Shown here piece by piece: positions 2,334 to 33,058 of a DNA stretch of 55,758 nucleotides; the stretch's first letter is position 1; the number at the start of each line of letters is the position of its first letter. Below the pieces are notes generated by a model that was not told the origin of the DNA, did no database searches, and worked only from the letters and a program-made list of their open reading frames with translations. Source of the stretch: a virus. Taxonomy: Duplodnaviria > Caudoviricetes. The translations under genes and the position numbers were made by a program. The stretch lies in IMG/VR virus record IMGVR_UViG_3300046777_000527, positions 1 through 55,758 of that record; one strand, written 5' to 3'.

Positions 2334-5300
2334 ATGGCGTTCGACGTTGAAGGTGCGCTAAAAGCTGGGTACTCGGAGGCAGATATTGCCTCGTATCTAG
2401 CTGGGCAAAGAGGGTTTGACCTAGAAGGCGCACGTAAAGCTGGATATTCCGACAGCGATATAGTTACGCACCTAGTTAATAAACCCGTACCTAAGGCTGA
2501 GCCTAAGCCCGAGCCTGCACCTGCACCAAAACCTGCTGCTCCCACCCCCATCCCCACGCCGGTAGAAGCTACTAAAGAGATCGACCCGACGACGGGTAAA
2601 CCATACCCTGAGCTACGTGCGCTACCTGACGAGCCTAGCATTTGGGATAGGTTGATGATGTGGGGTGGCGATAACAAAGCCAAAGCTGCTAACGAATATG
2701 CAGCTAGGCGCACTGCTGCTGAGAAGAAGATACCGCTATCCGAAGCCTACAAGATTACACCTGTAGCGCGACGCCCTACGTTTAACCCGGAAGGTAGACC
2801 CCTAGGTCAGGCTACTAAAGAGGCTGGAGAAGTCTTATCTAAATCCCTACCGGATGTACCCGCAGCTGTAGCTAATACCGCCTTGCGTGCTGTCCGTGGT
2901 GGTGACATACCTGTACAAGACCGCACATGGTTAGATAGAGCTATTACGGCTACTACTGTAGAACCACAGGAAACTGATCTTAATACGCAAGCTTTTGCTA
3001 ATGTTGGGCAGTCACTAGGCTACTCGGCTACCACGATGGTTGCCTCAGCAATCGCCGCTGCTGGGGGCACTGCTACCGCTGGCCCTTTAGGGGGCGCTAC
3101 CGCCGGATTTGGTACGTCCGCAGCCGTTTCTTACCGTGCTAGTAAGGATGAGTTTTTAGCCAGACTTAAAAAGAAACTAGACAAAGACTCCAAAAATACT
3201 TTCGACCGCCCGCTCAATGAAAAAGAATGGGCAGACGCTAAAAAAGAGTTCGATGACGCTGCTACTAAATATGGTGCGTGGGAAGCAGTGCCTGAGTCTA
3301 TTAGTAACTTGATCTTCCTTAAGGTTTTCTTAGCGCCTGTAAAAGCTGCTACTACCGCCGAGAAAGTTGCAGACTTTGCTAAACGCGCTGTTATATCGCA
3401 GCCGCCCGAACATATTACTGAGACTATTACAGCGCTTGGGCAGAACAAAGCTGAACTAGAGGCGGGGCTTACTAAAGAAGAGCTGCGTCTTAAAGATGCT
3501 TTTATGCAGCAGTTTATCCAGACCCTCGCTATCACCGGCGTGTTAGGTACAGGTGCTGTCGCTGCACAGAAAGCAAACCAATTCTACCAAGAGTACGTCG
3601 AGCCTAAAGTCCGTCCGGGGTCTGCGCTGGCTAGGGCTATACAAGCTGACCTAGTCACATACATGAACCAGCCCCGACAAGAGGCTGCGTTTACTACACC
3701 CCCGTCAGCCGCTGCGCCGGGAGTAACGCCTCCCGGGGTGCCCCCTCCTACTGAAGCTGCTGCACCAGCCGCACCGCCCGCTGCGCCGCCTGAGCCTACT
3801 TCTGTATTTACTGAGGCGCCGTCGGAGGACCCGCAAGTACAGGCGTTGACGCAGGCTTACGTAAGTAAAGGGTATCAACAAGAAGATGCTGAGCTGATTG
3901 CACGGATGCAGGTCGGTGCTTTAACCTTCCCTGTTACTGGCGCAGAGGGTAGAGCTATACAGCGGCAAAGCCCTGAAGATGAAGCACGGACTATGGCTGG
4001 CCGGGCTGAGCGCACAATGCTGCAAATGAAGGGGAGAAATGTTCCTGCTGCCGAGCCACCACCTTTTGTCACTGAACCAAGCACAGGTGAGTACAGCCCT
4101 GAAATGCCTCGCGGACGAGAGCGAGCCGCCCGAGGAACTGAAAGCCCTCTCGAGCGAGGACTGGATGCTGCTAGCCGTATTGCTGGACAACCTGTTGGAA
4201 GAGAAGAAGCTGAACGTGTTGCAGTAGATAACCGTAGCCGCCGTAGAGCCGAGTGGGTAGCAGGCGCGTTCCGTGGAGAGGCTTATCCTGACCTTAGCCC
4301 TATTCTGGGCGAGGCATGGATGCGCCGCACGCTAGCTAAGAATCCTACGCCTGAAGAATACGAGGAGGCCGCGTATGCAGAGCTGGAAAATACTGACGAT
4401 ATTTATACTCTTCCTGTTGAGCGCCGTGTACCACCTGCTGAGGTGGTGGGAGAAAGACCCGAGGGACGCGTTGAGCCAGCTGCTGAAGCTGCCCCTACCG
4501 AAGCGGTGGAAGCACCGCCTGCTGCTAAAACTGTTGAGTCTGTAAAGTCAGACAAAGAGAAAATATTTGAGTTGCAGCGTACTCAGCCAGAAGCTAAGAC
4601 TGGTGACGCTATTACTTTTAACCTGCCTTGGGTGCCGGGTGGTTATGAGGTATCGGGTATTGTAGGTAATTCCGTCTATATGGATAAAGACGGGCGCGAA
4701 GTCACTGCAGATACTCCGGGAGCTAAGCGCTATGTAAATGTTACCTACAAAGTAGACGGCGAGCAGATAACTAACCCGTTTGAAATAGATACGCTCCGCC
4801 TTAATACTATTCGTTTTGAGGAGAAACCCGACTTAACCAAACCTAAGGAGAAACCACGTGGCACTGAAGCCCCTAAAACCGTCGAAGCAAAAAAGGAAAG
4901 ACCGGCGAAACCCGCCGAGGGAGCCGCACCCGCAGGGCTAGAGCTTGAAGCTGGGCGCAAAGAAGAGCTTGAGGTAGACCCAGCAGTTTTAACCGCCGTA
5001 CAGCGTATCCCTAACGAAAAACTAAAGCAGCAGCTCATCGCTGAGTTTGGTGCCACTGCTGCTGGAGAGCCGCGTAAGCGTGCGCCGGGTGGTGGGCGTG
5101 AAGTTTCTGAAGCTGCAAAAACTAAAGAGGAACGTGGCGAGCAAGCTGCGGACATAGTCAACCTACTTCGTGATGTTCAGGCTGAGATAAGTGCGGCTAG
5201 GAAACTGGAGCGCAGTGCTAAAGGTGATGAGTTTGGTGTGGTTGGTCAGACTGCAGAGGAAGTGGCGTATCGTGAGGCGCTGCGTGACCTTAGCCTTGAT

Positions 5301-8300
5301 GTGTTAAGAGCCAGCCTATACAAGAGCGCACAGAAGTTTAGATCACGCCCTATCGTTGCGTATGGCGAGGCTGGCAAATATATAAAGAGCTTAAAACCTG
5401 ACGAGCAAGAACGGGCAAGAACTTTAGCAGAAGGTAAAGCTAATTATAGAACTTTACCTCCGCTACCTGAAATGCTGTCTACCCCCGCACAGCGTAAGCG
5501 AGCTATTGAAAAGATTAAAGCTGCGGAAGAAGAAGCAGCTGCAGAGCCTGTCAAAGAAGCACGCCCAGCTAAAGACGTAGTAACCGAGGCAGAGGAAGAG
5601 ATTAAATTCTTTACAACGCCAGAAGCAGAGGAGTTTAGGAAGCGCGGCGAAGAAGCTCGTAAGCGTGCTGAAGAGAAACAGCCACAAGAAAAGACTAGGT
5701 GGACAGACTTTAATGCGCGTCTACTGGCTAAAGCCATTCCGAAGTCTGAGAGCATGGAGGCTCAGTTTACTGAAGAAGAAATAGCAGATGCTATAGAGGA
5801 CATAGCTGACGATAAGTTTGACGCAGACGACGCTAAGAAGATGTCGTTTGACGATCTTAAAGAGTTTACTCAAGCTGCTATGCAGCTGGCGGCTGAGCGC
5901 CACACTACCGACACAGACAAGACCTTTAGGCAGCTAAACACCTTAGCTGGTGCGCTGACCTATATAGCCCAGACTGGCACACCCCTTGATGCTGGCATGG
6001 CTGAAGCTTTGCTTACTGGGGAGAATCTTGACCTAGTAAAGAACGTATCTCTGTACGCTGTCAAACCCCCCAAAGAGGGAGACACTCCTACGCAAGCGCA
6101 GAAGATGGTAAAAGGCGCTTTTGGTGCTTACGGCCCCCGTAAAGATAGAACGGGCGGTGTGGTATTTCTGGACGATTCCGGTAAAACCCAGTCGGGGCTT
6201 AATAATCTGACGGTGCTCCACGAGGGAGTGCATGCAGTCACGTCCATGAAGCTGTTTTATGTACAGGACATGATTGCTGCGGGTAGACAAGAGGAAGTAG
6301 ACGAGAAGCTGTTAGATGGGTATGACCAGCTAAATGAACTCATGGCGCAAGCTAACAATACCGCTGCCGACATGATGCGTAACAAAACGCTACCTAAACC
6401 CATAGCAGCTCTAGCGGCGAAAGACGCATTTACTGACGTGCATGAGTTTGTAGCTTACGGCCTTACCGACGCCAACATGAAGGCGTTCTTGCTGACGGTG
6501 CCGGGCGTAGGTGCGAAGAAGTCTGGCCTTTCCCGTTTTATATCCGCCATCCTGAACCTGTTGCAGTTGGGCAAAGCTAAAGCGTCGGCGCTGCGTGATC
6601 TTGTAATAGTGTCTGGCAAGTTCATGGAAGCCAAGACCCCGTCGGCTGCAGCTATGGCTGAGGCGTATGAGCAGTCAAAGCGCCTGAGCGAAAGCGAAGT
6701 TAAGCAAGTTAAAAAAGATATAGAGTCTGAAGCTGAGAATGAAGCAAAGGCTGATGAGATACAAAAAGACATAGCAAAAACTACGACTAATTACGACCCG
6801 CTACTAAATAAAGTAGGAAAGCTTTTTACCACTGCGCGTACGTTAGATGGGCTCAAAGGTTATTTGGTTGCTAACGTAAGAGCGATGAACGCTAATGCGT
6901 TAAAAGTGTTTTTACCTAAAGTGCCTAGAGATACGCTGTTTAGGATGGCTGAACGCGCGGATATACCGCGCATGGCTGAGGTAGAAAAGTTGTTCCGTGA
7001 CGCAGCGGATTTTCGCTTTAGTATGCTAGAGCGTGCGGAGGCTATAAGTAATAAGTGGGTAGCGCTGCCCGGCAAGATGCAAACGCTGCTGGCTAACACC
7101 ATGCACGAGTCTACTATTGTTCGTATAGACCCGTCTAAAGATACATCAAATGACACGCTAAACAAGATGTGGGAAGGGCTGACCCCCACAGCCAAAAAAG
7201 TTTATACGCAAACGCGTGATTTTTACGATACTAACCGCAAGCTGGTGTTTGCTTTAATGGCTCAGAACGTCCAAAACTCGGTCATGAACCCCGAGTCTAA
7301 AGCTGCGACCATAGAACGCCTACAGACACTTTACAACGACGCACAAGTAATTAAGCCTTATTTTCCGCTGATGCGGTATGGTGAATACTGGGCGCAGTTT
7401 GGTAAAGGGAACGACCTTAGCTTTGTCATGTACGAGAACGCTGCCGATAAAGAGCAAGCGGTGCAGGACTATATAAACGAAAAGAAAAAAGCTGGAGAAA
7501 AACGCGGTGATGTCGAAGAAAGATTACGAGAGAGTAAAGAACTTAGCGACGGAAACGACATACAGACGTTAATAGATAAGATGGCAGATAAGAGCAATCT
7601 GCTACAAGATATCTTACGTAGAATAAACGAGACGCCTAAGCTTGCAGACAAAGCGCTAAAAGACGCGTTTGCTTCTGAAGTTTATCAAATGTACCTGATG
7701 ACGCTGCCGGATGCGTCGTTTCAAAAAGCGTTCATAAAACGTAAAGACCGTAAAGGCTACTCTGAAGACGCGCTTCGTAACTTTACAGTTACTAGCAACC
7801 GCATGGCGCAGCAGATTACCAACATAAAGTACGGCCCAAAAATACGTAATGCTTTGAGCGCTGCTTTTTCAAGTGTAGAAGGCACGATAGATCGTGCACG
7901 TTCAGAGATGATTATTAACGAAGTAAAAACTCGTTACGTAAATGATTTAGCCCCGACCGAAGAATCTGGTTTTGCTATGGTGGCTAGAACGGCAACAAAG
8001 ATAGGATACTTTTATTACATGACCCGACTGCGTCATGTAGTTAGTAACATGTGGGCAATTCCTTCACGGTCATTCCCCATAACCTATAAGTACTTTGAGA
8101 TGAACGGTAAGGCGGACGCAGAGATGCAGAAAGCGTTTTCGCTAGGGTTACTTAACTCAGTGGGTGTAACAAGAAAGAACCCAGACGGAACGGTTACATA
8201 CACAATGCCCTCGTTGTTTTCGTCAGACTTAATACGTAACCACCCTGAGTTGTCGCGCCCAGAATATGCGCATATATTGCGTCGTATGAAACGTGTTACT

Positions 8301-9647
8301 TCTCATGAGACGCAAACATTTAACATCGTACTACGGAAAAATCTGACCAGTAGAACTAAGGGCGGCAAAGCGCTGGAATACGGAAACATGATTCTAGGTG
8401 CAGCAAACCAAGGTTCGGAGCGCATGGTTCGAGAATACACACTTTATAGCCTTTACACACGGGCACGCACGCAGCCTATTCGTGGTGCGGCAAAAGCAAT
8501 GAGCCCTGATGAAGCTATGGAGTTTGCGCACTCAGCAATGCAGGAAGCTTTGTACGATTACTCTTATGAGAACGAACCTGCGTGGATGAAAAACGCAGCA
8601 TTTATCATCCCTGCAAACTTTAAAAAGTGGAGCTTTTTTACAATAGCGTACTATTTCCGCAACATGCGCGCTATGCTTGCGCCATTGCCGTACGAGACTC
8701 GTAGAGGCGCAGCACTAGCTGTAGTAGGTTCGACGTTAATGGGGGTGTTGGGGTCAGGGCTAAAAGGCGCGTTTCTTATATCGCAGATGTTGATTGCTTA
8801 CGGTGCGGCGAGGTGGTTACTAGGTTCCCTAGGTATAGGTGGGGAAGATGAAGAGGAAAAATTCTTAAAAGACCTTAACTTACCAAAATGGTTTACCGAG
8901 ATCTACATACCCAGAATGTTTGGTGATACTGGGCTTGCGAACATTTTAAGGTCGGGAGCGTTGAATACAGCTTCTGGCGGAGATATAGCTAACTCTATAT
9001 CAGAAGGCTCTCTCATATTTAACGAGCTGCCTGATGAGACTATGTTTGATAATTTTGCAGATACGCTGGTGTCTGCTTACTTTGGGGCTACGGGTAGCCT
9101 TGTAGCTAAAGGTAAGAAAGCTTCTGACGCTTGGCATGTGGGAGATTGGCGGCTTGCGCTAAGTTCTGCGCTACCCGGAGTGGCGGGGGATGTGGCTACT
9201 GCGTATAGGTACACTCAAGATGGTGCACGGACTAGGAATTTAGATATTAGAAAGTACCCTCAAGAGTTTACAAAGATGGAACTATTCTTGCAAGGGCTTG
9301 GCTATAAACCAGCAAACCTAGCAAGGCTAGAAGAGGTAGATGCTCTAGTAGCGAGAAAGAAGACAGAGATAGCAAGCCGTCGGGAAAAAATTATTCGTGA
9401 CGTTGTTCAGTCTATAGAGATAGGCACCGAGAGCGCCATAAATAAACGGCTTGCAGATATACAGAAGTTTAACGCTATGTATCCTCATCCTGACTGGCGT
9501 ATTGACCCTGAAGATGTCATTAGCTATAGGAACAACCAGATAGATGAGAAATCTAAAAAGCTGCGCGGGCTAAAGATAGAACCGAAGCTCTATCAAATAC
9601 TACCTATGCGCGAAAAGTCTTTACGGGATATAGAACGCGGGAAATAA
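2334..9647 (+). CDS. Giant (2437 aa) internal virion / polyvalent-type protein with zincin-like metallopeptidase motif
   Basis: N-terminal tandem FDxEGAxKAGYSxxDI repeat, P/A/E-rich linkers, HExxH (VLHEGVHAV) followed by HEFVAYGL, long helical C-terminus; last gene of the structural arm. Confidence 0.7.
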   Translation: MAFDVEGALKAGYSEADIASYLAGQRGFDLEGARKAGYSDSDIVTHLVNKPVPKAEPKPEPAPAPKPAAPTPIPTPVEATKEIDPTTGKPYPELRALPDEPSIWDRLMMWGGDNKAKAANEYAARRTAAEKKIPLSEAYKITPVARRPTFNPEGRPLGQATKEAGEVLSKSLPDVPAAVANTALRAVRGGDIPVQDRTWLDRAITATTVEPQETDLNTQAFANVGQSLGYSATTMVASAIAAAGGTATAGPLGGATAGFGTSAAVSYRASKDEFLARLKKKLDKDSKNTFDRPLNEKEWADAKKEFDDAATKYGAWEAVPESISNLIFLKVFLAPVKAATTAEKVADFAKRAVISQPPEHITETITALGQNKAELEAGLTKEELRLKDAFMQQFIQTLAITGVLGTGAVAAQKANQFYQEYVEPKVRPGSALARAIQADLVTYMNQPRQEAAFTTPPSAAAPGVTPPGVPPPTEAAAPAAPPAAPPEPTSVFTEAPSEDPQVQALTQAYVSKGYQQEDAELIARMQVGALTFPVTGAEGRAIQRQSPEDEARTMAGRAERTMLQMKGRNVPAAEPPPFVTEPSTGEYSPEMPRGRERAARGTESPLERGLDAASRIAGQPVGREEAERVAVDNRSRRRAEWVAGAFRGEAYPDLSPILGEAWMRRTLAKNPTPEEYEEAAYAELENTDDIYTLPVERRVPPAEVVGERPEGRVEPAAEAAPTEAVEAPPAAKTVESVKSDKEKIFELQRTQPEAKTGDAITFNLPWVPGGYEVSGIVGNSVYMDKDGREVTADTPGAKRYVNVTYKVDGEQITNPFEIDTLRLNTIRFEEKPDLTKPKEKPRGTEAPKTVEAKKERPAKPAEGAAPAGLELEAGRKEELEVDPAVLTAVQRIPNEKLKQQLIAEFGATAAGEPRKRAPGGGREVSEAAKTKEERGEQAADIVNLLRDVQAEISAARKLERSAKGDEFGVVGQTAEEVAYREALRDLSLDVLRASLYKSAQKFRSRPIVAYGEAGKYIKSLKPDEQERARTLAEGKANYRTLPPLPEMLSTPAQRKRAIEKIKAAEEEAAAEPVKEARPAKDVVTEAEEEIKFFTTPEAEEFRKRGEEARKRAEEKQPQEKTRWTDFNARLLAKAIPKSESMEAQFTEEEIADAIEDIADDKFDADDAKKMSFDDLKEFTQAAMQLAAERHTTDTDKTFRQLNTLAGALTYIAQTGTPLDAGMAEALLTGENLDLVKNVSLYAVKPPKEGDTPTQAQKMVKGAFGAYGPRKDRTGGVVFLDDSGKTQSGLNNLTVLHEGVHAVTSMKLFYVQDMIAAGRQEEVDEKLLDGYDQLNELMAQANNTAADMMRNKTLPKPIAALAAKDAFTDVHEFVAYGLTDANMKAFLLTVPGVGAKKSGLSRFISAILNLLQLGKAKASALRDLVIVSGKFMEAKTPSAAAMAEAYEQSKRLSESEVKQVKKDIESEAENEAKADEIQKDIAKTTTNYDPLLNKVGKLFTTARTLDGLKGYLVANVRAMNANALKVFLPKVPRDTLFRMAERADIPRMAEVEKLFRDAADFRFSMLERAEAISNKWVALPGKMQTLLANTMHESTIVRIDPSKDTSNDTLNKMWEGLTPTAKKVYTQTRDFYDTNRKLVFALMAQNVQNSVMNPESKAATIERLQTLYNDAQVIKPYFPLMRYGEYWAQFGKGNDLSFVMYENAADKEQAVQDYINEKKKAGEKRGDVEERLRESKELSDGNDIQTLIDKMADKSNLLQDILRRINETPKLADKALKDAFASEVYQMYLMTLPDASFQKAFIKRKDRKGYSEDALRNFTVTSNRMAQQITNIKYGPKIRNALSAAFSSVEGTIDRARSEMIINEVKTRYVNDLAPTEESGFAMVARTATKIGYFYYMTRLRHVVSNMWAIPSRSFPITYKYFEMNGKADAEMQKAFSLGLLNSVGVTRKNPDGTVTYTMPSLFSSDLIRNHPELSRPEYAHILRRMKRVTSHETQTFNIVLRKNLTSRTKGGKALEYGNMILGAANQGSERMVREYTLYSLYTRARTQPIRGAAKAMSPDEAMEFAHSAMQEALYDYSYENEPAWMKNAAFIIPANFKKWSFFTIAYYFRNMRAMLAPLPYETRRGAALAVVGSTLMGVLGSGLKGAFLISQMLIAYGAARWLLGSLGIGGEDEEEKFLKDLNLPKWFTEIYIPRMFGDTGLANILRSGALNTASGGDIANSISEGSLIFNELPDETMFDNFADTLVSAYFGATGSLVAKGKKASDAWHVGDWRLALSSALPGVAGDVATAYRYTQDGARTRNLDIRKYPQEFTKMELFLQGLGYKPANLARLEEVDALVARKKTEIASRREKIIRDVVQSIEIGTESAINKRLADIQKFNAMYPHPDWRIDPEDVISYRNNQIDEKSKKLRGLKIEPKLYQILPMREKSLRDIERGK
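4039..4227 (+). CDS. Candidate overprinted 62-aa protein nested (+1 frame) in the giant virion gene
   Basis: Purine-rich SD-like GAAGGGGAG just upstream of ATG; amphipathic helical product (PPEELKALSSEDWMLLAVLLDNLLEEK), while the host frame here is a low-complexity linker. Confidence 0.45.
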   Translation: MFLLPSHHLLSLNQAQVSTALKCLADESEPPEELKALSSEDWMLLAVLLDNLLEEKKLNVLQ

Positions 9648-9672
9648 AAAACCCCCGGGGGGTACCCGGGGG
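9646..9672 (-). terminator. Rho-independent terminator ending the minus arm / candidate sRNA
   Basis: 8-bp stem CCCCCGGG (9652-9659)/CCCGGGGG (9665-9672); A6 at 9646-9651 gives the U-tract on the minus strand; sits where the two arms converge. Confidence 0.85.
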
Positions 9673-9726
9673 AAAGATCGTGAAACCACGAAGGAGAGCG
9701 ACGACGAAGGAGCTAACAACGCCGTC
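9646..9726 (-). ncRNA. Candidate trans-acting anti-Shine-Dalgarno small RNA (~81 nt)
   Basis: Hairpin GACGGCG/CGUCGUC with loop UUGUUAGCUCCUU, then a CUCUCCUU linker, hairpin UCGUG/CACGA and the terminator. 18/18 complementarity to the RBS region at 32873-32890 and 13/13 to 14123-14135. Confidence 0.6.
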
Positions 9727-9732
9727 AGGTGC

Positions 9733-9741
9733 TTTATATCA
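9733..9741 (-). promoter_or_regulatory. Extended -10-like element (TGnTATAAA) upstream of candidate sRNA
   Basis: Minus strand reads TGTGATATAAAGCACCTG; predicted +1 near 9726 coincides with the first hairpin. No good -35, and the -7 T is not consensus. Confidence 0.4.
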
Positions 9742-9939
9742 CACTCTCCACACCCGCACACCTCTTACCCCTAGTTCTATCACGCACTTTGTCACGACTG
9801 AGTACTTCAGACGCTTTGTGACTTTATGCACTGTGGCTGTTGCTACTGGACAATTTAAGCAGGGTATAAAGAAGGAGTGCCCTTTCTTAAATTGCTTCCA
9901 ATTAATTTGGTAGACTACCCCCTCGATTTTCATTCGCAT
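9739..9939 (-). CDS. Small hypothetical protein downstream of primase-helicase
   Basis: GGAG upstream (start may be ATG at 9933); overlaps the primase 3' end; ends GVRGVRVWRV. Confidence 0.65.
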   Translation of the reverse strand: MRMKIEGVVYQINWKQFKKGHSFFIPCLNCPVATATVHKVTKRLKYSVVTKCVIELGVRGVRVWRV

Positions 9940-12802: not shown

Positions 12803-13723
12803 TTAATCGTCAGCACTCCACGCATTAACCACATCAGCCAAGCTCTTGCCCTCCGTAGGCGCAGGCGTCGCTTTCTTGCTCGAACGCTTCGTTGGCTCAG
12901 CGATAGCGGGTTCATCCTCCTCTTCTTCCACAACCTTCGCCTTAGGCGCAGGCTTACTCGCGGTCTCGAACTCCTCGTCATTGCCCTCACCTTTATCCAC
13001 GGCGGCTACGTTCAGGATGACTGCTTTCTGGGCTTCAGGCGATACCACAGCCTCGTCTACGACTGCTTGCAGCTCAGGGTGCGACGCCACAAAATCCACG
13101 GCACGGAAGCGCACCTGCTGGTTGTCGTCCTCGTCAAAGCTCAGCTCAGTAATCACACCGTCAATGTTCTCACCGTTAGCAATCACGTAGTCGATGTAGG
13201 CGTTCAGCGGGAACAGCTGGCCAGCGCCCTTACCAAAGATTGACTTTGATGCAAGCTTAAGCTGGTAGATATCACCGTGGTTATTGCCGCCGATCTCGTC
13301 CGGTAACACAACAGCTACACGACGCTCGAACCGGCATGCGCGGGTTGTACCCTGACCGGAGCCCTTGACGTTCTGTGGGCAGGTCTCGCACTTCTTCGAC
13401 TGAGGGTCTTTGATGCTAGCGTCCGGTGCATTACCGTCGTTCGACCAGCAGTCAGGTGCTGTGGCTTCCGCGCTAGGGTCGTAGGCTTTCATGTAGAAAG
13501 TGCGCTGGGCAGTTGCCTGAGCTACACCTACCAGTACCACGCGCAGCGGTGCGTTGAACTTGCCAGCCACGTCGCCATTAACTACACGCACGAACTTGCC
13601 GTTGCGGGGTGAGATGCGCTTTAAGCGGTTAGCTTTCATCAGGCTCTGGGTCAGAGCACTGGGGGCTTTTTTACCAGCGATAGCTACGTCGCGGTTCTTA
13701 AAAATTGAAACTTCGTTAGTCAT
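12803..13723 (-). CDS. Putative single-stranded DNA-binding protein
   Basis: PDCWSNDG...CETCPQN...RACR motifs, acidic C-terminal tail with an aromatic residue, position within the replication module; RBS AAGGAGAG. Confidence 0.55.
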   Translation of the reverse strand: MTNEVSIFKNRDVAIAGKKAPSALTQSLMKANRLKRISPRNGKFVRVVNGDVAGKFNAPLRVVLVGVAQATAQRTFYMKAYDPSAEATAPDCWSNDGNAPDASIKDPQSKKCETCPQNVKGSGQGTTRACRFERRVAVVLPDEIGGNNHGDIYQLKLASKSIFGKGAGQLFPLNAYIDYVIANGENIDGVITELSFDEDDNQQVRFRAVDFVASHPELQAVVDEAVVSPEAQKAVILNVAAVDKGEGNDEEFETASKPAPKAKVVEEEEDEPAIAEPTKRSSKKATPAPTEGKSLADVVNAWSADD

Positions 13724-14117
13724 TCTTGCCTCTCCTTACTGTGATCTTAAACTGGCTATCTACAAGCATGCCGGGTGGGAATACATCTGGGTTCTCTTCA
13801 ATAAACTGCTTCATGTTGGTCTGATGTATACGGCGCTCAAGCAAACCATACGCATCATTATCACGGATGAAGTTGTACATAGAGTCCCAGTCGTTAGTCC
13901 AGTAGCGTGTAGCTACACGGCGCATAACGGTACCTGCTGGGGTTTTAATGCTGGTGGATTCGGTGTCTCTGAAGACCTCTAACATCTCGGCTTCAACGAC
14001 AGCCATCTGCTCAGCAAGCTTCTTATCTTCCTCTTCGTACGCGGTTTTTATTTTGTCCCGCTCATCGCGTATCTTGAGGTAGATAGTGGCCAGCTGATTC
14101 ACTGACGTATCACTCAT
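13716..14117 (-). CDS. Conserved replication-module hypothetical protein (coiled-coil N-terminus)
   Basis: Strong RBS AAGGAG; coiled coil followed by DWDSMYNFI..LLERRI; overlaps the SSB-like start. Confidence 0.75.
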   Translation of the reverse strand: MSDTSVNQLATIYLKIRDERDKIKTAYEEEDKKLAEQMAVVEAEMLEVFRDTESTSIKTPAGTVMRRVATRYWTNDWDSMYNFIRDNDAYGLLERRIHQTNMKQFIEENPDVFPPGMLVDSQFKITVRRGKND

Positions 14118-14135
14118 TTTAGCTCCTTCGTGGTT

Positions 14136-14258
14136 AGTGCAGGGTCACTGGGTAGGGGGTTATATAGAGAAAGAAGCAGCAAAAAACTCTATTAACTTAG
14201 CCCAGCCCCTGCTGCGGTAGTTACTCGCCACACACCGCTTGGCGTCGTCGCTTGCACT
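14136..14258 (-). ncRNA. Candidate structured intergenic RNA / leader
   Basis: Nested stems GCAGGG/CCCTGC, CTGGG/CCCAG, GTTA/TAAC, ATAGAG/CTCTAT plus GCGGT/ACCGC in a non-coding gap of about 145 nt. Confidence 0.45.
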
Positions 14259-17152: not shown

Positions 17153-17496
17153 CTTTCTAAGCCCTTCATTATCATGACCATAGCGATAGCCTGACTCAAT
17201 GTCTGACCTTCTTCTACGATAAACATCTCGTGCTCCCAGTCAAAGTGTCCGTGGTGCATAGGGTTACTCTTCTTGGTGCTTACTTCTAGCAGGCGTCCGT
17301 TTACCGCTGGCACTAGCTTGACCATAAGCTCAGGCACAGTGCTATGGTCTGAGTCAGAGCGGAGTACCGCAGTTTGTAACTCGCTGCGAACCTTTCTATT
17401 CTCTGCGCGGTGCCTTAACTTAAACGCTATCTCCCCGACGACAGACCCTGCTATCCCGCATATCACACCTACCCCCAGACTCATTGCGTCTAACAT
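17149..17496 (-). CDS. Hypothetical protein with N-terminal hydrophobic segment
   Basis: RBS AAGGAG; operon overlaps. Confidence 0.65.
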   Translation of the reverse strand: MLDAMSLGVGVICGIAGSVVGEIAFKLRHRAENRKVRSELQTAVLRSDSDHSTVPELMVKLVPAVNGRLLEVSTKKSNPMHHGHFDWEHEMFIVEEGQTLSQAIAMVMIMKGLER

Positions 17497-19322
17497 TCTC
17501 CGTAGCTCCTTCCGTAGCCTGCCTCACAGTTAAGTGGCAGGTCTGGTGCCCACTCAGGGCGAAGTTTCATACATAGCTCGACGAACTCTTTGCCTGTGTC
17601 CTTTTCTTCTTCCGGGACTATGCAGGCGATAGCGTCGTGCACCGTCATTACTACCTTGTACTTCTTGGCAATAATCAGCATCTGATTACCGATGACAATA
17701 CGCGCTAGAGCTTGGCAAACATTCTCTGTTACCTTGCCGCCATATATCCTATTTGGTATGGTGGCTTTACCCCTCTTTGTATCGTACACCATTTCTGCAG
17801 AACCGTCATCCCTTTGTGTGACGCGCAGGTTCGGGTACTTTATGTACATACCGTTAGGTAACTTGATACCTCGTTTACCTTCTATCTTCAGCACGCCATC
17901 ACGACCTAGCGTACTTGTTTGATTGTCTCGGATATGTTCAAGAGCCTTGCCTGCAGCTTTCCAGAAGGCGGCAATCTTCGGGTACGTCTCACGATAAACG
18001 GAGATGATGCGCTGGCATTCTTCAAGCTCCAGAGTCGTTCCGAAAACTTTAAGTTGTGCTTGGAACTTCTGAGCACCCATGCCATACCCCGCCCCCAAGA
18101 TCGTAGTTTTCCCAACGAACCTCTCTTCTTTAGAAATCTGCGATATGTCTTTGTTGTAAATAGCCGACGCCATGATCTTATAAACATCCTCGCCATTCTC
18201 AAATGCCTTTACTAGATCATCCTGCCCAGCCAGCCACGCCAGCGTCCGCGCCTCGATCTGCGACGAGTCTGAGTCGATCATCACATAACCATCAGGTGCC
18301 ATGATTGCGTTTTTAAGCGCGCTTGAGCGGGGAAGGTTTTGAAGGTTTAGTTTGTCATCACCACCCCACCGTCCTGTGTGGGCGGCGTAGTAGCGTAGGG
18401 GAACTGGCATCAATCCTCTGGTAGCAATACCCATAAACCGCTCGGTACGAGTTTCTTCCAGCGTAGACTTCACGCCTAGCCGCGCAGCTACAAGAGCCTG
18501 CACTTGCGTGCTTTCATGGTCGAGCAAAGCTTTGAACTCTTCGTCACTTTTAGCAAACGCCCATGTCTCTTTGCCAGTAGTAGGGCTGATCTTACGTGGA
18601 GGCACAACACCGCATACCTTTAACAGTTGCGCGAACTTCTCGTTCGACATAAGGTCTGCTTTACCGCCAGCCAAAAAGTCTACGTCGTTGAGTAGTGTTG
18701 CTTTCTTATTGACAACAATGTGCAAGTGGTGGTTCAACCAATCCCAGTCTAGCTTTAGCACTGGCTCTGAGAACATACGGATGGTCAGATCAATCAGCTT
18801 TAGCTCAGACTGCACGAAGTGTGGCGACAGTACTTTGAATAGCTCTAGGGTTAGCTCGCAGTCGTTCTTGCAGTACTCGCCATACGCTGCAAGGTCAGCA
18901 GGGGTAAAGTCTAGGCGGCGTTTACCTAGCGCGTTTACAACTTCGGTTCCTTTCTCCCCGAGGCTGTAGTACTGTGCCAAGGCTTCAAGGCGACCTCCCA
19001 CCTCGATGGTATGCACAGCCCGTGCCATACTAAGAGTATCAAGGATACCCCTAGGCCGAATGCCAAAACACCAAGAAAGAATAGCGGCGTCAAACATAGC
19101 GTTATGAGCCAAGACCAGATTTTCCTGAAGGTTAAGCGACTCCAGAAACTTCTTGATTGTGTTGTGTGTACCTGATACCCACTGTGCGACACTTCCTTCC
19201 TCCTTTATGCCTACGCCTATAACCTCAAACCGTTCGTCGCGGATGTACTCTTCCGTGGTCAGCTTTGATAGGCTGAACTCACGGTCGTAGTAGGTTTCAA
19301 AATCAAGGCAGATTATTTTCAT
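17490..19322 (-). CDS. polA: Family A DNA polymerase with 3'-5' exonuclease
   Basis: Exo motifs LDFET, HNAMFD, YCKND; HTGRW, NLQNLP; motif A DSSQIEAR, motif B GKTTILGAGYG, motif C VHDA. Confidence 0.92.
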   Translation of the reverse strand: MKIICLDFETYYDREFSLSKLTTEEYIRDERFEVIGVGIKEEGSVAQWVSGTHNTIKKFLESLNLQENLVLAHNAMFDAAILSWCFGIRPRGILDTLSMARAVHTIEVGGRLEALAQYYSLGEKGTEVVNALGKRRLDFTPADLAAYGEYCKNDCELTLELFKVLSPHFVQSELKLIDLTIRMFSEPVLKLDWDWLNHHLHIVVNKKATLLNDVDFLAGGKADLMSNEKFAQLLKVCGVVPPRKISPTTGKETWAFAKSDEEFKALLDHESTQVQALVAARLGVKSTLEETRTERFMGIATRGLMPVPLRYYAAHTGRWGGDDKLNLQNLPRSSALKNAIMAPDGYVMIDSDSSQIEARTLAWLAGQDDLVKAFENGEDVYKIMASAIYNKDISQISKEERFVGKTTILGAGYGMGAQKFQAQLKVFGTTLELEECQRIISVYRETYPKIAAFWKAAGKALEHIRDNQTSTLGRDGVLKIEGKRGIKLPNGMYIKYPNLRVTQRDDGSAEMVYDTKRGKATIPNRIYGGKVTENVCQALARIVIGNQMLIIAKKYKVVMTVHDAIACIVPEEEKDTGKEFVELCMKLRPEWAPDLPLNCEAGYGRSYGEC

Positions 19323-19771
19323 TTAATACCTATGGCTTTCCCGACACGGCTCATTAGCGTCGGGGTCTTTGGTTCTTCATAAGGCATCGGGACTATGGCA
19401 CCGGGTTGAAGTACGTTGTTTTGAAGCATGCTTGGGCGTATTCCCGCCCCCATCGCCATACCACCACCGGCGTAAATCTTTGTCTGCGCTAAGTTACGCT
19501 GCTCTTGTCTTTCTTCACGCTCTGGGTCTAGCACTCTCTGCATAACCATGTCGTTGAACTGCGGCACCCAGATATGTTCGCGGAACTTCTCATGTAGGGC
19601 TCTAATTTCCTCCTCTGTCATACCGTACGCATGGTTTTTATCCCCCGCCACGTAAGTCCTGACAGAGTTAATAACGTCTTCCCACTTGCCGAACTGCTCC
19701 TTAAACTCTTCAGGGTGCGACTCGATACGAGCTAAAATGATCTTTACTCCTGCGCTGAAATGTTCACTCAT
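19319..19771 (-). CDS. Hypothetical protein
   Basis: RBS AAGGAG; operon overlaps. Confidence 0.7.
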   Translation of the reverse strand: MSEHFSAGVKIILARIESHPEEFKEQFGKWEDVINSVRTYVAGDKNHAYGMTEEEIRALHEKFREHIWVPQFNDMVMQRVLDPEREERQEQRNLAQTKIYAGGGMAMGAGIRPSMLQNNVLQPGAIVPMPYEEPKTPTLMSRVGKAIGIK

Positions 19772-20060
19772 CTTTTAGCTCCTTTATGATTGTCTCCACA
19801 AGGTCTACGTTATCCTCCCGCACTACCACGGCTATACCACCAGCAGTCTGTATGCTTTTAATCTCGCGTTGCTGTAACGCGGTAGGTTCGTTCTTACCTG
19901 CCTTGCACTCGATGGCTATAAACCGACCGCGAACACAAGCAACAATATCAGGAACACCAGAACGACCATATCCATGGGTAGCCGGGAAGAAGTAGTAGAC
20001 GTTGTGGGCTTTGAGTATCTTGACTACAGCTGACTTTACTTTAGACTCCGGTGTTGACAT
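19764..20060 (-). CDS. VRR-NUC domain nuclease
   Basis: PESKVK...GVPDI...AIECKA...TALQ...GG.AVVV pattern. Confidence 0.85.
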   Translation of the reverse strand: MSTPESKVKSAVVKILKAHNVYYFFPATHGYGRSGVPDIVACVRGRFIAIECKAGKNEPTALQQREIKSIQTAGGIAVVVREDNVDLVETIIKELKDE

Positions 20061-20328
20061 GGAGATACTCCAGTGCTTTCTTTAAGTGTCGGATAGCCAT
20101 AGTGATGCGCAGGTTGCGCGTATCGGTATCAGTAATTTTTCTAGCAGCCGCTTTACTACCTGCCGGGCGTCCACGCTTCCTAGGTGGGGCGCCATTTTCC
20201 TTACGTACTTTACACAGCATGGCGCTGATAGACCTGATGTTACCGCCGCGTTTTAGGAAGATTTCTTGCGCGCTCATGTTCGGGTTCTTACGAATAAAGT
20301 CGGCCATACTCATTCTTTTGCGTCCCAT
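20041..20328 (-). CDS. Small basic putative DNA-binding protein (AT-hook-like RKRGRP)
   Basis: Start reassigned to ATG 20328 behind AAAGGAGCTAAC; MGRKRMSMADF...PRKRGRPAGS. Confidence 0.6.
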   Translation of the reverse strand: MGRKRMSMADFIRKNPNMSAQEIFLKRGGNIRSISAMLCKVRKENGAPPRKRGRPAGSKAAARKITDTDTRNLRITMAIRHLKKALEYLHVNTGV

Positions 20329-20357
20329 GTTAGCTCCTTTCGTGGTTGTGCATGTTT

Positions 20358-26146: not shown

Positions 26147-26533
26147 CTATACAACGTGACGATAAATCTCGATTGTCTGGTTTGCCTTGTTGTAGGTAGA
26201 TGAGTATGTACCTTTACCCCAATGAGTCGTACACCATGAACACACGTTGCCGCGCACATTCTCAGGGTTGTACTTACCTACAGGAACACTGGCGATGTTA
26301 TCTGGTTGTAGGTTCTCAACGTACTGCAGGATATGGTTACGCACTTCGCCTATGGGGTACTGACTAGCTGCACGAGTGCGGGTCTTTTGCTTCTTGGGCG
26401 CGACAGCTTTTAAGTTGCCGTACTCTTCGTCGCCTTCTTTGGTGAACACCTTGAACTGAATGTAACCCTTGCGCTCTAATATCTCAAGGTCGTGTATGGC
26501 TTTAGCCATCATCTTACGGAATACTTGTTCCAT
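26147..26533 (-). CDS. Hypothetical protein
   Basis: RBS AGGAG; 128 aa. Confidence 0.7.
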   Translation of the reverse strand: MEQVFRKMMAKAIHDLEILERKGYIQFKVFTKEGDEEYGNLKAVAPKKQKTRTRAASQYPIGEVRNHILQYVENLQPDNIASVPVGKYNPENVRGNVCSWCTTHWGKGTYSSTYNKANQTIEIYRHVV

Positions 26534-26550
26534 AGCGGTTTAGCTCCTGA

Positions 26551-27390
26551 TTAATATGCTGCGTCTATGATGTACATCTCCCCGACTCGCAGCCCTACGC
26601 CGGGTACAACCTCATGCTCTGCTACCAGCTTCAACATACCTACCTGCCTGCGTACATCTTCCGGTACGTCATCAGCCAGATACTCCTTTATCTCAGTCGG
26701 AGATTTAGCAACAGTATATTTATCATCCTTAATTGTTACCGTCAACAATTTATGTTGTTGTAATTTTGTATGGATGTCCGATAAGTCATTAGCCCTATCT
26801 ATCAGCCCGGCAAGCTCTGTGTGCGCTTTGATAGCTCCTGTATCCTCTAGCGTTGATTTGAATTCCTCCCAGTATTTATCTTTAAGAAACCTAACCCCCG
26901 GCTCCATCAGTATCCTATGCGCGTAGTCCACATCCCGTTCAGCCTGACCCGCAGCCCTACCTGCTATATTTGATGCCATTCCCCACGCCTCGTCTATCTT
27001 ATCGACCAAGGTTTTAGGGTAGAAATTCTTGTGTATCTGCTTTAGCGCGTCCTTTAACTTGCCAGTTTTGAACGTCGTACCCCTATCCCTTTTCTCCGCA
27101 ATGCGTTTGTTATATACGGCAAAGACGTACTCCCTTGCATGCTCTCCGCGCTTGCGTCTAGTCTCAACTCCTATTTGCCCTAGTAGTTCTTCAGTAGCCG
27201 TAATGGAGACCTGCAACTCCATCACCCAAGCAACTTTGTTGTCGTACTGCCTACTTGCATAATTTACACTTAGCATCCAGTCCGGGTGCTTCTCTGCCAC
27301 GGCATACGCCAGTGGCTCTAACGTCGGGTGGAGTTTGAGTTCCCATCCATCCCCTACCGGCTCGTGCTCTAGTTTGATGTTGCTATACAT
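26551..27390 (-). CDS. Hypothetical protein
   Basis: Start reassigned to ATG 27390 (MYSNIKLEH) behind GGAGG. Confidence 0.7.
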   Translation of the reverse strand: MYSNIKLEHEPVGDGWELKLHPTLEPLAYAVAEKHPDWMLSVNYASRQYDNKVAWVMELQVSITATEELLGQIGVETRRKRGEHAREYVFAVYNKRIAEKRDRGTTFKTGKLKDALKQIHKNFYPKTLVDKIDEAWGMASNIAGRAAGQAERDVDYAHRILMEPGVRFLKDKYWEEFKSTLEDTGAIKAHTELAGLIDRANDLSDIHTKLQQHKLLTVTIKDDKYTVAKSPTEIKEYLADDVPEDVRRQVGMLKLVAEHEVVPGVGLRVGEMYIIDAAY

Positions 27391-31806: not shown

Positions 31807-32873
31807 TACAGCAAGTCCTCGTTTTTAGCCACCCAGTCGCTGAATGCTTTGCATGCGAACGCAACCTTCTGCTTTGTCTGTGACTTAGCGATGTTGATAG
31901 CGAACGCTGCTTGCCACTCTGGTTCGAACCGCTCAAGGTACTGCATGAAGGGAGTGATGGTGTCTTTCTCTACCTTACTGATAGCACCGAACACCACGAT
32001 TGCAGATGCACCTGCAGACTTAGGCACAGGCGTATGTAGTGGGTCTTTGATTGTTGACTCCCACGTAGGAAGCTGGTCAGCAAAGTCAAGGTAGGCTTGG
32101 AAGTCACGCGCAGCTGGCTCACCGATTGCGCCTTTCAATGCAGACAGTACGCTGTCGTTGTCTAGCGTCTTGCGAACCTTGACGATGTGTGATGCACGTT
32201 CGAGTGAACGCGGGGATACGTAAGCCTGCATAGGCTTAGTGGGGTTGAAGATATAGGGATTCTCTTTCTGGCTTTCGTCTGTATAGCTTGCGAACAGCTG
32301 CGGGAATTGCTTACCGAACGCAAGTATCTCTGGTGCAATGTCGTTGTTCATAGCCCAGTCAGCCCATTCGTCGAACGATGGCTTCGATACCTGCACAGGA
32401 ATTATGCGGTTTAGAGTGTGCGCTTTAAGTACGTCGCCCACGCCGTCTGTGGCTAGGTTGCCAGTCAGAAACACGATAGTCTCAGGATGCACAGGGATAT
32501 CACCGAGGCGAGGATTGTGCGCCTCTAGCAACGGATGCAGCATGTTAATCACTGCAGGAAAGCCCTTACTGAACTCGTCGAGCATGACGATCATAGGCTT
32601 GTTGGTATGGAACCCGAACCTAGCGTTAGGATAGTAGCGGGTAGTCTTTGTCTCATGGTCGATGACAGGCATGGCGATGTCACCTAAGTCCATGTTGGGC
32701 ACATCAATATAGGCAAGCCCGTGGTTCGGGAACCGCTCTTTCAGAGCGGACATAATTGAAGATTTGCCGATGCCCGGCTCACCACGCAACAAGTATCGGT
32801 TCATCGGGGTAGATGCAATCAGGTTAGCTGCTTGCTTCAGAGTTACGGTAGTGCCAAAGTTTATAGCTGCCAT
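31806..32873 (-). CDS. MoxR-like AAA+ ATPase
   Basis: Walker A GEPGIGKS, Walker B MLDEF, TGN, arginine finger LNR, sensor 2 SPRS. Confidence 0.85.
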   Translation of the reverse strand: MAAINFGTTVTLKQAANLIASTPMNRYLLRGEPGIGKSSIMSALKERFPNHGLAYIDVPNMDLGDIAMPVIDHETKTTRYYPNARFGFHTNKPMIVMLDEFSKGFPAVINMLHPLLEAHNPRLGDIPVHPETIVFLTGNLATDGVGDVLKAHTLNRIIPVQVSKPSFDEWADWAMNNDIAPEILAFGKQFPQLFASYTDESQKENPYIFNPTKPMQAYVSPRSLERASHIVKVRKTLDNDSVLSALKGAIGEPAARDFQAYLDFADQLPTWESTIKDPLHTPVPKSAGASAIVVFGAISKVEKDTITPFMQYLERFEPEWQAAFAINIAKSQTKQKVAFACKAFSDWVAKNEDLL

Positions 32874-33058
32874 GTTAGCTCCTTCGTCGTTAGTAATAGT
32901 GAAGCCAAGGTGCGTCGGCTTCGTAGTTTATGCACCGCCATTCCGTGCTGCGCATTCCTTACCGGCTCGCAATGGTCAAGCACCGGCTCATCCTCGCTGT
33001 AGGTTTGCTTTCCACCTACGCTCACTGTCGCTAGTGTTTGTGGGCTACCTGCCACAAC

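Follow-up and report, generated by a model that had tools for sequence, protein, structure and literature searches.

The c4 antisense RNA of phages P1 and P7 is a phage-encoded, structured RNA that carries its recognition sequence in loops and blocks translation around the ribosome-binding site (RBS), as described in the review PMC12197685. Here we describe a candidate small RNA (sRNA) gene on the IMG/VR viral contig IMGVR_UViG_3300046777_000527 (55,758 bp; completeness estimate, 88%), which was analyzed over its whole length and is called the window below. The element is a minus-strand unit of ~80 nucleotides (nt) between the stop codon of a conserved 66-amino-acid (aa) gene, p66 (stop at 9741-9739), and a convergent giant virion gene. 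It is a real, conserved, structured RNA element that displays sequences complementary to the Shine-Dalgarno (SD) sequence (anti-SD sequences) and has promoter-like signals and a terminator. The best explanation, to which we assign a probability of about 0.6, is that the RNA targets a regulon of the phage's own early genes through their SD regions; this reading is plausible, not proven.

The c4 RNA has a single target operon (ant/icd), with which it shares the transcript that it is processed from, and it provides immunity in temperate phages through antirepressor control; the CI RNA of phage P4 is comparable. The unit in the window resembles P1/P7 c4 as a structured phage RNA with a loop-displayed recognition sequence that would pair around the RBS. 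It differs in that it is encoded 4 to 23 kb from its putative targets, which would be eight or more separate genes reached through a shared extended SD sequence. No lysogeny genes were present among the 32 window proteins scanned, and there is no sequence or Rfam relationship to c4. A transcript common with the target, an antirepressor, and a temperate phage, the marks of c4-type control, were not found for the window sRNA.

RNAIII of Staphylococcus aureus and the RsaE/RoxS "UCCC" class are host-encoded RNAs in which C-rich or CU-rich loops pair with the SD sequences of many host mRNAs. The window unit is similar in having several pyrimidine-rich anti-SD modules in loops and linkers and in its putative masking of multiple SD sequences; it exposes an anti-SD motif, and its complementarity to several initiation regions exceeds chance (P <= 0.01). 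RNAs of the RNAIII/RsaE class pair with the SD core of host genes, whereas the RNA here is viral, its putative targets are the virus's own early genes, and the pairing would include a virus-specific extension, GCUAA.

MicL and DapZ are sRNAs derived from 3' untranslated regions (UTRs), with a promoter inside the upstream coding region. In the window, a promoter-like box likewise runs into the 3' end of the preceding gene, whose mRNA uses the same terminator; the internal promoter is here a predicted one, read from conservation. The T4 proteins RegA and RegB shut off early messages via their initiation regions, and the antisense RNAs CopA and RNA I control plasmid copy number, CopA being cis-encoded with a single target. 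The likeness to these systems is one of logic only (shut-off of an early set, or a dosage-dependent antisense brake on replication genes), and the action proposed here, unlike that of the plasmid copy-control RNAs, is in trans on several targets. A host-encoded 3'UTR-derived sRNA, CisR, is reported to act on the phage mRNA cep of CTXphi. In the openly accessible papers that were searched, no phage sRNA was found to control several genes of its own phage in trans via their RBSs; to our knowledge, few small RNAs are known from phages without lysogeny genes.

There were no Rfam 15 matches in the whole window at gathering thresholds. The best sub-threshold match, and the only one with an E value of <0.01, was RF02837, anti-hemB (Burkholderia RNA 7), which scored 26.2 bits where its gathering score is 49.5. 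In both RNAs, a UCUCCU-rich stretch in a hairpin or linker precedes a GC terminator; the match consists essentially of the CU-rich stretch and the terminator and leaves the first hairpin of the window unit uncovered.

Structure of the minus-strand unit

The minus strand from 9741 to 9642 reads TGATATAAAGCACCTGACGGCGTTGTTAGCTCCTTCGTCGTCGCTCTCCTTCGTGGTTTCACGATCTTTCCCCCGGGTACCCCCCGGGGGTTTTTTATT. In order, it comprises a -10-like box, a hairpin with a large loop, another CU-rich stretch, a smaller hairpin, and a GC terminator ending in U6:

9733 to 9741, minus strand: -10-like box TGATATAAA (TGnTATAAA, extended -10 type); the family consensus is stop-NN-TAnAcT
9699 to 9727, minus strand: hairpin 1 (anti-SD module 1), stem (U)GACGGCG/CGUCGUC(G) with the 13-nt loop UUGUUAGCUCCUU at 9719-9707 (from folds)
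9684 to 9698, minus strand: anti-SD module 2, CUCUCCUUCGUGGUU, with its 5' part single-stranded; complementary to the leader at 14117 over 13 nt and to the leader at 13723 over 8 nt
9678 to 9691, minus strand: hairpin 2, UCGUG/CACGA, confined to close relatives (the window, L003, and L004; from folds)
9642 to 9672, minus strand: intrinsic terminator, 8-bp GC stem at 9672-9652 followed by U6AUUU (terminator scan)

RNAfold predicted hairpin 1 (9727-9699), hairpin 2 (9691-9678), and the terminator, with CUCUCCUU single-stranded between hairpin 1 and the small hairpin. The minimum free energy is -35.1 kcal/mol (z = -3.8), and none of 200 shuffles was as stable as the native sequence. An earlier, sequence-only reading of this DNA had placed the -10-like box, the hairpins, the anti-SD stretches, and the terminator at these coordinates, all of which are confirmed by the sequence, the fold, and the terminator scan. 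It had missed that the TGA of its "extended -10" is the stop codon of p66, so that the stretch is also the 3' UTR of p66, besides being a possible separate transcription unit.

The stem at 9672-9652 with its U6 is the sole terminator that the scan found between the p66 stop and the convergent gene and is hence common with the p66 mRNA; it is kept in all relatives that possess the intergenic region. Its U tract overlaps the stop codon (9645-9647) of the convergent giant gene, which encodes 2437 aa. The terminator is one-directional, with no T run after the stem on the plus strand, and late transcripts may therefore read through as antisense to the sRNA, p66, and the primase gene. Both in the window and at the same place in relatives, the giant gene ends inside the terminator without a T run of its own.

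A plus-strand open reading frame (ORF) that uses the SD-like sequences as its RBS was considered and rejected: the available starts were a GTG located 17 nt away and a 77-aa ORF antisense to p66, and the relatives have no conserved start.

Conservation of the unit in related phages

A protein-anchored scan identified 181 IMG/VR stretches that encode the primase, of which the best 80 (99 to 53% identity) were studied. The synteny of primase, p66, short intergenic region, and convergent giant gene is kept in the related loci. In 73 of the 80, a p66 homolog immediately follows the primase gene, and the unit, with one to three hairpins, is kept in position in at least 70 related IMG/VR contigs. 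CUCC occurs in 53 of 54 unique sRNA cores and in 78 copies, compared with 15.7 +/- 3.7 after shuffling (a five-fold enrichment over composition), while GGAG occurs only 3 times. A UCUCCUU-type stretch is found in nearly all relatives, and per-sequence folds (median z of -1.7 for the unique cores) show that most variants have their CU-rich stretches in a loop or in the linker from one hairpin to the next.

Two loop sequences, UUAGCUCC and CAGUUGC, are constant while stems change between clades. Stems of the first type read GACGGCG/CGUCGUC, GGCGGACG/CGUCCGUU, GGAAG/CUUCC, or GAAAGG/CCUUUC, depending on the clade, and those of the second hairpin type read GUCGG/CCGAC, GCACUAG/CUAGUGC, AUUAGC/GCUAAU, AUCGGC/GCCGAU, or GCAAGG/CCUUGC. 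The loop 11-mer is identical in clades with flanking proteins that are just 50 to 55% identical. When three subsets were aligned with MAFFT and RNAalifold, hairpin A and the terminator were the only structures to emerge, and two-sided changes were few; because the variable 5' hairpins align poorly by this automatic procedure, the structure was read from the per-sequence folds.

On the early-arm strand of 73 loci (833 kb), 24 copies of the 10-mer TTAGCTCCTT were counted, of which 23 fall within the sRNA region. The complement, AAGGAGCTAA, was found 19 times; every copy belongs to the early arm and has a start codon no more than 12 nt away, where chance predicts ~0.8 occurrences per strand. The exact 17-nt hairpin GGAAGTTAGCTCCTTCC was found in 66 IMG/VR contigs (61 in the canonical context) and the window-type 16-mer in 20 (12 canonical), the non-canonical copies of these hairpins looking like chance matches in coding sequence. 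At least 73 IMG/VR contigs carry one of the two exact hairpin versions in the same context.

Two variants of the region were observed in addition. In L016, the p66 stop is followed by ~5 nt and then the end of the convergent gene, with no box, hairpins, or CUCC, which represents a natural deletion of the unit. The second loop motif, (U)CAGUUGC, sits in the first hairpin of the sRNA region on at least five different stems (L019, L025, L026, L027, L079, and others); no convincing target was found for it, the longest complement to the phages' own leaders being 7 nt.

Complementarity to early initiation regions

The minus-strand arm of the window, from ~9739 to ~36100, carries small early genes and then a replication and DNA-modification module, and the late arm lies on the plus strand. 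Simple gene calls of our own yielded 42 early and 27 late initiation regions, which were compared with a 60-nt sRNA core. Perfect complements of at least 9 nt were found in 8/42 early and 0/27 late initiation regions; they reach at least 10 nt in 6 early regions, with a maximum of 18 nt. When the sRNA was shuffled 2,000 times with both CTCCTT cores kept, which tests only the flanks, the P values were 0.0095 for matches of at least 9 nt and 0.0025 for those of at least 10 nt, and the observed sum and maximum of complementarity were reached by 0/2,000 shuffles. The sequence GGAGCTA was likewise confined to early initiation regions (8/42 versus 0/27; Fisher p = 0.019). It occurs 12 times in the window: 10 times on the coding strand of the early arm (8 of these at called starts), once antisense in the sRNA, and once in the giant gene. 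The motif beyond the SD core, GGAGCTAA, is common to early and replication genes in the window and absent from its late genes, and in the window's clade the potential pairing reaches 3 to 12 nt past the six bases that 16S ribosomal RNA (rRNA) can use. The initiation regions concerned are as follows:

32871 to 32897, minus strand: AAA+ (AAA_5/MoxR-like) ATPase gene; 18/18 complement of the hairpin 1 loop and 3' arm
20326 to 20352, minus strand: 95-aa gene; 12-nt complement (AAGGAGCTAACA)
14115 to 14141, minus strand: 133-aa Gam/Pam3 gp33-like gene; complement of module 2 over 13 nt and of the loop over 10 nt
13721 to 13745, minus strand: 306-aa gene (called SSB-like in the sequence-only reading); AAGGAGAG, 8-nt complement of module 2
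17494 to 17516, minus strand: 115-aa gene; AAGGAGCTA
19769 to 19791, minus strand: 150-aa gene; AAGGAGCTAA
24147 to 24166, minus strand: 314-aa glycosyltransferase gene; AAGGAGCTA
26531 to 26556, minus strand: 128-aa gene; AGGAGCTAA
31025 to 31048, minus strand: 403-aa DUF2201/VWA metallopeptidase-like gene; AAGGAGCTA

These matches had been listed from the sequence alone, and they hold. The 18/18 inverted match of the AAA+ gene (9701-9718 with 32873-32890) was found both by BLAST and by a repeat finder; of the 25 longest inverted pairs listed for the early arm, no other is matched at 100%. The matches of 13 nt at the 133-aa gene (14117) and of 12 nt at 20328, the AGGAGCTA-containing RBSs at 17496, 19771, 24149, 26533, and 31027, and the second-module match AAGGAGAG at 13723 are all as stated, and the late RBSs, given as mostly GGAGU or GGAGG, read GGAGT or GGAGG. 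The leaders at 14117, 20328, and 32873 are three direct copies of a 27-nt element, of which the sRNA holds an inverted partial copy.

Duplex energies were less informative. With whole sRNA cores against all initiation regions, RNAduplex energies were driven by sRNA length and GC content and are not diagnostic. Loop-only duplexes ranged from -14 to -19 kcal/mol for the top targets, compared with approximately -8 kcal/mol for a generic 16S tail sequence, and separated early from late genes only weakly.

p66 and promoter-like signals

Two further features lie upstream of the unit:

9739 to 9939, minus strand: p66, conserved 66-aa gene, the last of the early/replication arm; its stop, TGA at 9741-9739, overlaps the -10-like box (ORF list)
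9754 to 9759, minus strand: -35-like position, reading GTGCGG (Val-Arg codons), a poor -35, in the window and TTGCGN in most relatives (alignment)

Among 54 unique relatives, positions 6 to 11 from the first base of the p66 stop are T (54/54), A (53/54), any base, A (53/54), C (41/54), and T (47/54). Exactly 17 nt upstream of this TAnAcT box, the p66 of relatives has a Leu residue followed by Arg, both conserved. TTG encodes this Leu in 34/44 cases, compared with 11/195 other p66 Leu codons, and the Arg codon that follows is CGN in 51/52 cases, compared with 164/269 for p66 Arg codons elsewhere, relatedness inflating the p-values of both comparisons. The synonymous bias spells TTGCGN, a -35-like hexamer at ideal spacing from the -10-like TAnAcT. 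The size of this bias is hard to explain by coding alone, and because the box lies at a fixed offset from the stop with the TTG bias 17 nt upstream of it, the two signals point to the RNA having its own promoter. The element is probably transcribed on its own. The possibility that the box is a repeated phage promoter motif was rejected, as no repeats were found upstream of other genes in six genomes.

An alignment of 27 p66 sequences had a mean column identity of 67% and 10 invariant residues. The AlphaFold model (pLDDT [predicted local distance difference test], 90) has the order beta-beta-beta-alpha-beta-beta, and no clear fold match was found in the PDB (best Foldseek E-value, 0.24; best VIA-align Z, 5.3). 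Neighbors of p66 in the Atlas are viral hypothetical proteins, some with DUF7303. A role for p66 as an RNA-binding partner was considered and not assigned, since KH, R3H, and KhpB proteins appeared among weak Foldseek rows only.

Loops and leaders across the family

Loop and extended SD co-occur in the relatives. GGAGCTA accounts for 35 of 261 GGAG-type initiation regions in loci bearing the loop and for 7 of 351 in loop-less loci, and at least one GGAGCTA start is present in 23/29 loop-bearing versus 7/41 loop-less loci. The closest relative with a large contig (G014) has AGGAGCTA 12 times on the early strand, versus 0 for the reversed control. When the sRNAs of 16 genomes were scored against early leaders, the cognate sRNA had the best score in 4/8 clades (binomial p = 0.011). 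Matched changes were also seen: a 1-nt difference between G004 and G005 in the RBS of the AAA+ gene (GGAGCTAACA / GGAGCTACAA) is matched in the loop (GGUUAGCUCC / CUGUAGCUCC), and the 306-aa gene has GGAGAG together with a CUCUCC module in the window and L003 and GGAGAA together with UUCUCC in L007, L011, and L012. GGAG-type starts that match the two bases beside the CUCC of the genome's own sRNA made up 77/265 of the early and 17/109 of the late starts in the pooled set, and 46/144 versus 12/66 with one genome per clade (p = 0.046).

Several observations weigh against a regulon of this kind. The start sites rest on a crude gene caller. A generic promoter scan detected no sigma-70 site at the box (9733-9741) of the window, whose own clade has the poor -35 position GTGCGG and a -10 that ends in A instead of T; with Val in place of Leu and the box TGATATAAA, the case for a promoter is weaker for the window than for the family. 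The UUAGC loop extension is present in 29/70 loci, with at least eight changes on the primase tree, and seven phylogenetically independent pairs gave ~3.9 in the expected direction, 1.0 against it, and 2.1 unchanged (median sign-test p, 0.375). L012 to L014 have the loop and no GGAGCTA start in 5 to 9 kb of sequence, and L011 lacks the loop yet has a GGAGCTA start. The longest match of G009 to its own leaders is at most 7 nt, and the cognate sRNA was not the best match for G002, G013, G004, G005, and G010. Module 2 of L004/G014 (AGUCUCC) mismatches the SD of its own 306-aa gene, and in L003, whose primase is 99% identical, the 13-nt match is missing from the 133-aa gene. Finally, the late major-capsid gene (302 aa) carries an RBS of the AAGGAGCTA type in G001, G002, and G003, and late GGAG-type starts of G003 match in 8/15 cases, as often as early ones. 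A restriction to early genes thus fails across the family, and on the capsid genes the motif is either simply a strong RBS or a sign that the sRNA also touches a late gene. The capsid homolog of the window (44361-45269) has AAGGAGTC as its RBS.

The co-variation of loop and extended SD expected from the sequence-only reading is accordingly visible in the raw co-occurrence and in the cognate scores of 4/8 clades and falls short of significance in the independent pairs. The scarcity of the extended SD at late RBSs holds in the window (8/42 early versus 0/27 late) and does not extend to the capsid genes of relatives.

Two other repeated sequences were noted in these genomes. In G008 (L108-L109), a leader, AAGGAGAAGAACAC-ATG, is repeated ~6 times, and it occurs at single genes in G001, G004, G005, and G014; this leader pairs with the G008 sRNA (GUUCGUUCUCCUU) over 8 to 9 nt, or over 12 nt with one bulge. 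A 13-bp palindrome, CTAACA[A/T]TGTTAG (often ccCTAACAWTGTTAGgg), occurs 8 to 24 times per genome, always in the early region, in G002 to G008 and G011 to G013 (for example, in L095-L096, corresponding to G004:9208-21585, and in L091 and L093-L094, corresponding to G003). Its copies are mostly intergenic, 30 to 150 nt upstream of genes, and look like the operator of a dimeric regulator; the palindrome is absent from the window, G001, G009, G010, and G015, with one near-copy in G014. The palindrome (CTAACAWTGTTAG) was rejected as an sRNA target, as it is mostly intergenic and away from start codons and the sRNAs share only GUUAG with it.

A proposed self-targeting regulon and its alternatives

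We judge the unit to be a putative gene for a trans-acting anti-SD sRNA of the 3'UTR class with an internal promoter, placed where the early/replication arm of this uncultured freshwater phage ends, and the sRNA probably turns down the translation of several of the phage's own early genes. An RNA of ~80 nt would arise from a weak sigma-70-type promoter of its own, as the 3' end of early-operon transcripts, or in both ways. Its loop would pair over 9 to 18 nt with early initiation regions that carry the extended SD AAGGAGCTAA. Pairing that continues 3 to 12 nt past the SD core would enable the sRNA to out-compete the 16S rRNA tail, which pairs only with AAGGAG, and so lower translation of the targets. 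As template number rises with replication and several targets belong to the replication module, the sRNA would act as a dosage-dependent brake or an early-to-late shut-off. Late antisense transcription of the giant gene through the sRNA gene could remove the RNA late in infection. The sequence-only reading had proposed that the sRNA masks a shared extended SD of early genes; a conserved unit and complementarity past the SD core in the window bear this out in part, and the repression itself, like the timer role that was suggested for it, is a prediction. Its other proposal, a lysogeny-like or immunity switch, is without support because no integrase or repressor was present among the 32 proteins scanned.

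The alternative that survives best, which we hold to be unlikely, accepts a real conserved RNA and assigns it mainly to host mRNAs, or to general competition for SD sequences by mimicry of the 16S tail, with the matches to the phage's own genes as a by-product of strong AAGGAG-type sites. The generic CUCC/UCUCCUU core is indeed kept in 53/54 unique versions, unlike the UUAGC extension with its 29/70 loci and at least eight changes; several clades lack an extended match to their own genes, and the best sub-threshold Rfam look-alike is a bacterial sRNA with a UCUCCUCCC loop. Such an RNA would, however, leave unexplained why the 10-mer that includes the extension was found only as the sRNA loop and, in complement, at early-gene RBSs, as well as why the matches in the window extend over 12 to 18 nt.

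Placed after it, and likewise improbable in our view, is a stretch that works in cis only, as a structured 3' UTR and early-operon terminator serving stability, termination, or protection from convergent late transcription, its SD complements being relics of an inverted leader duplication. A relic would decay, yet the loop 11-mer is identical at 50 to 55% identity of the flanking proteins, with the stems differing; both the -10 box and the preference for TTG suggest that the RNA is transcribed separately, and CUCC is five-fold enriched over composition. These points stand against the location of the stretch in the p66 3' UTR directly before the operon terminator, the three direct copies and the inverted partial copy of the 27-nt leader element in the window, and the absence of a plus-strand T run, through which late transcripts may continue as antisense, all of which a cis-acting element would accommodate.

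A role at the DNA level, with the conserved sequences bound by a protein (for instance, a regulator or a factor for replication or packaging), is very improbable. The palindrome CTAACA[A/T]TGTTAG of relatives does have a half-site that resembles the RBS extension CTAACA and the loop UGUUAG, but the window has 0 of these palindromes, the motif is strand-specific and tied to start codons, and the hairpin arms vary around a constant loop, which is the opposite of a dimeric protein site. Chance combined with common SD-like sequences, leaving no functional element besides the terminator, is close to refuted: although an 18-mer inverted match is not vanishingly rare in a 56-kb genome (on the order of 0.1 per genome by our own rough estimate), it is contradicted by the conservation of the unit at its position in at least 70 related contigs, by the shuffles, and by the restriction of the motif to two contexts.

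Parallel with Cluster K start-associated sequences

The start-associated sequences (SAS) of Cluster K phages are 13-bp motifs with AGGAG located just upstream of the starts of 13 to 19 non-structural genes, as described by Pope et al. (2011; PMC3203893). According to the same paper, SAS conservation exceeds what 16S rRNA can pair with, and each K1 genome has one copy in the opposite orientation (PMC3203893). The role of SAS is still called unknown in papers from 2024 and 2025, and the passages on SAS that were consulted make no mention of antisense RNA.

As in Cluster K, the motif described here lies a few nucleotides from the starts of a subset of non-structural genes, in one orientation; the analogy is one of kind only. 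The 13-bp SAS consensus, GGGATAGGAGCCC, which we confirmed in phages Anaya and DarthP, differs from AAGGAGCTAA(C) here, the host of Cluster K belongs to another phylum, and Cluster K phages are temperate.

The reverse SAS copy of Anaya (L215:34871-34883), which is on the transcribed strand, falls in the 10-nt apical loop of a strong hairpin between gp96 and gp97. The hairpin region (L215:34790-34960; positions 59789-59959 of the record) has z values of -2.8 to -4.3. This region is present in 133 Mycobacterium phage records, where it is annotated inconsistently, with nothing or with hypothetical proteins. The two-hairpin structure is kept in 8 aligned Mycobacterium phage records, with 5 pairs changed on both sides, and the anti-SAS loop of Anaya is a 12/13 complement of SAS. 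In DarthP, the loop reads CCUCCUUCCCC with SAS unchanged and there is no co-variation, so that exact anti-SAS complementarity is not general.

Genome context

All 20 sequencing runs in which window:8000-12000 was found are recorded as DNA, none as RNA, and come from freshwater or lake metagenomes. The left end of the window has two large plus-strand genes, the second of which (2334-9647) encodes the 2437-aa LPD39/DarB-like virion protein. The replication and modification module comprises an AAA_5 ATPase, a DUF2201/VWA protein, glycosyltransferases, a methyltransferase, an Hjc-like nuclease, and a family A DNA polymerase, together with a PD-(D/E)XK exonuclease, an SNF2 helicase, a Gam/Pam3 gp33-like protein, and a DUF927 primase-helicase; terminase, portal, and capsid genes are on the late arm. 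Integrase, repressor, and antirepressor families were not found among the 32 window proteins scanned. A blastn search of the region against 50,697 phage records gave no match. By its primase, the nearest named phage is Pseudomonas phage Rollin (31% identity), in which the convergent genes overlap and there is no intergenic region of the sRNA kind.

The MoxR-like AAA_5 ATPase (355 aa) and the DUF2201 metallopeptidase/VWA-like protein (403 aa; labeled "HNH endonuclease" in PHROG) are encoded at window:29816-32873 on the minus strand with one small gene between them. Both genes have the GGAGCTA leader, and both are kept in 13 to 14 of 16 genomes. In a gap between early genes (window:35290-35552), a 21-nt repeat, GTCTTACAATCTTACAATGCT, occurs three times with 76 to 100% identity; the repeats lie near promoter-like and terminator-like sites and may represent early promoter or operator repeats.

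Implications

The element is a feature of a large freshwater phage group, beyond the one contig in which it was noticed. If the self-targeting regulon is true, it would be an RNA counterpart of early shut-off of the T4 RegA/RegB type and a simple, portable, and programmable switch whose only parts are a loop and an SD extension. We tentatively raise a broader possibility, which is doubtful at present: phages may run a private translation code, in which some of their early genes have an SD extension that is invisible to the host ribosome, and one sRNA, encoded where the early arm ends and transcribed in step with genome copy number, reads this extension and shuts off in trans the genes that carry it. 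The same "anti-SAS" logic might explain the SAS of Cluster K, and by this analogy an "anti-SAS" hairpin RNA may offer a concrete hypothesis for a function that has been called unknown since 2011.

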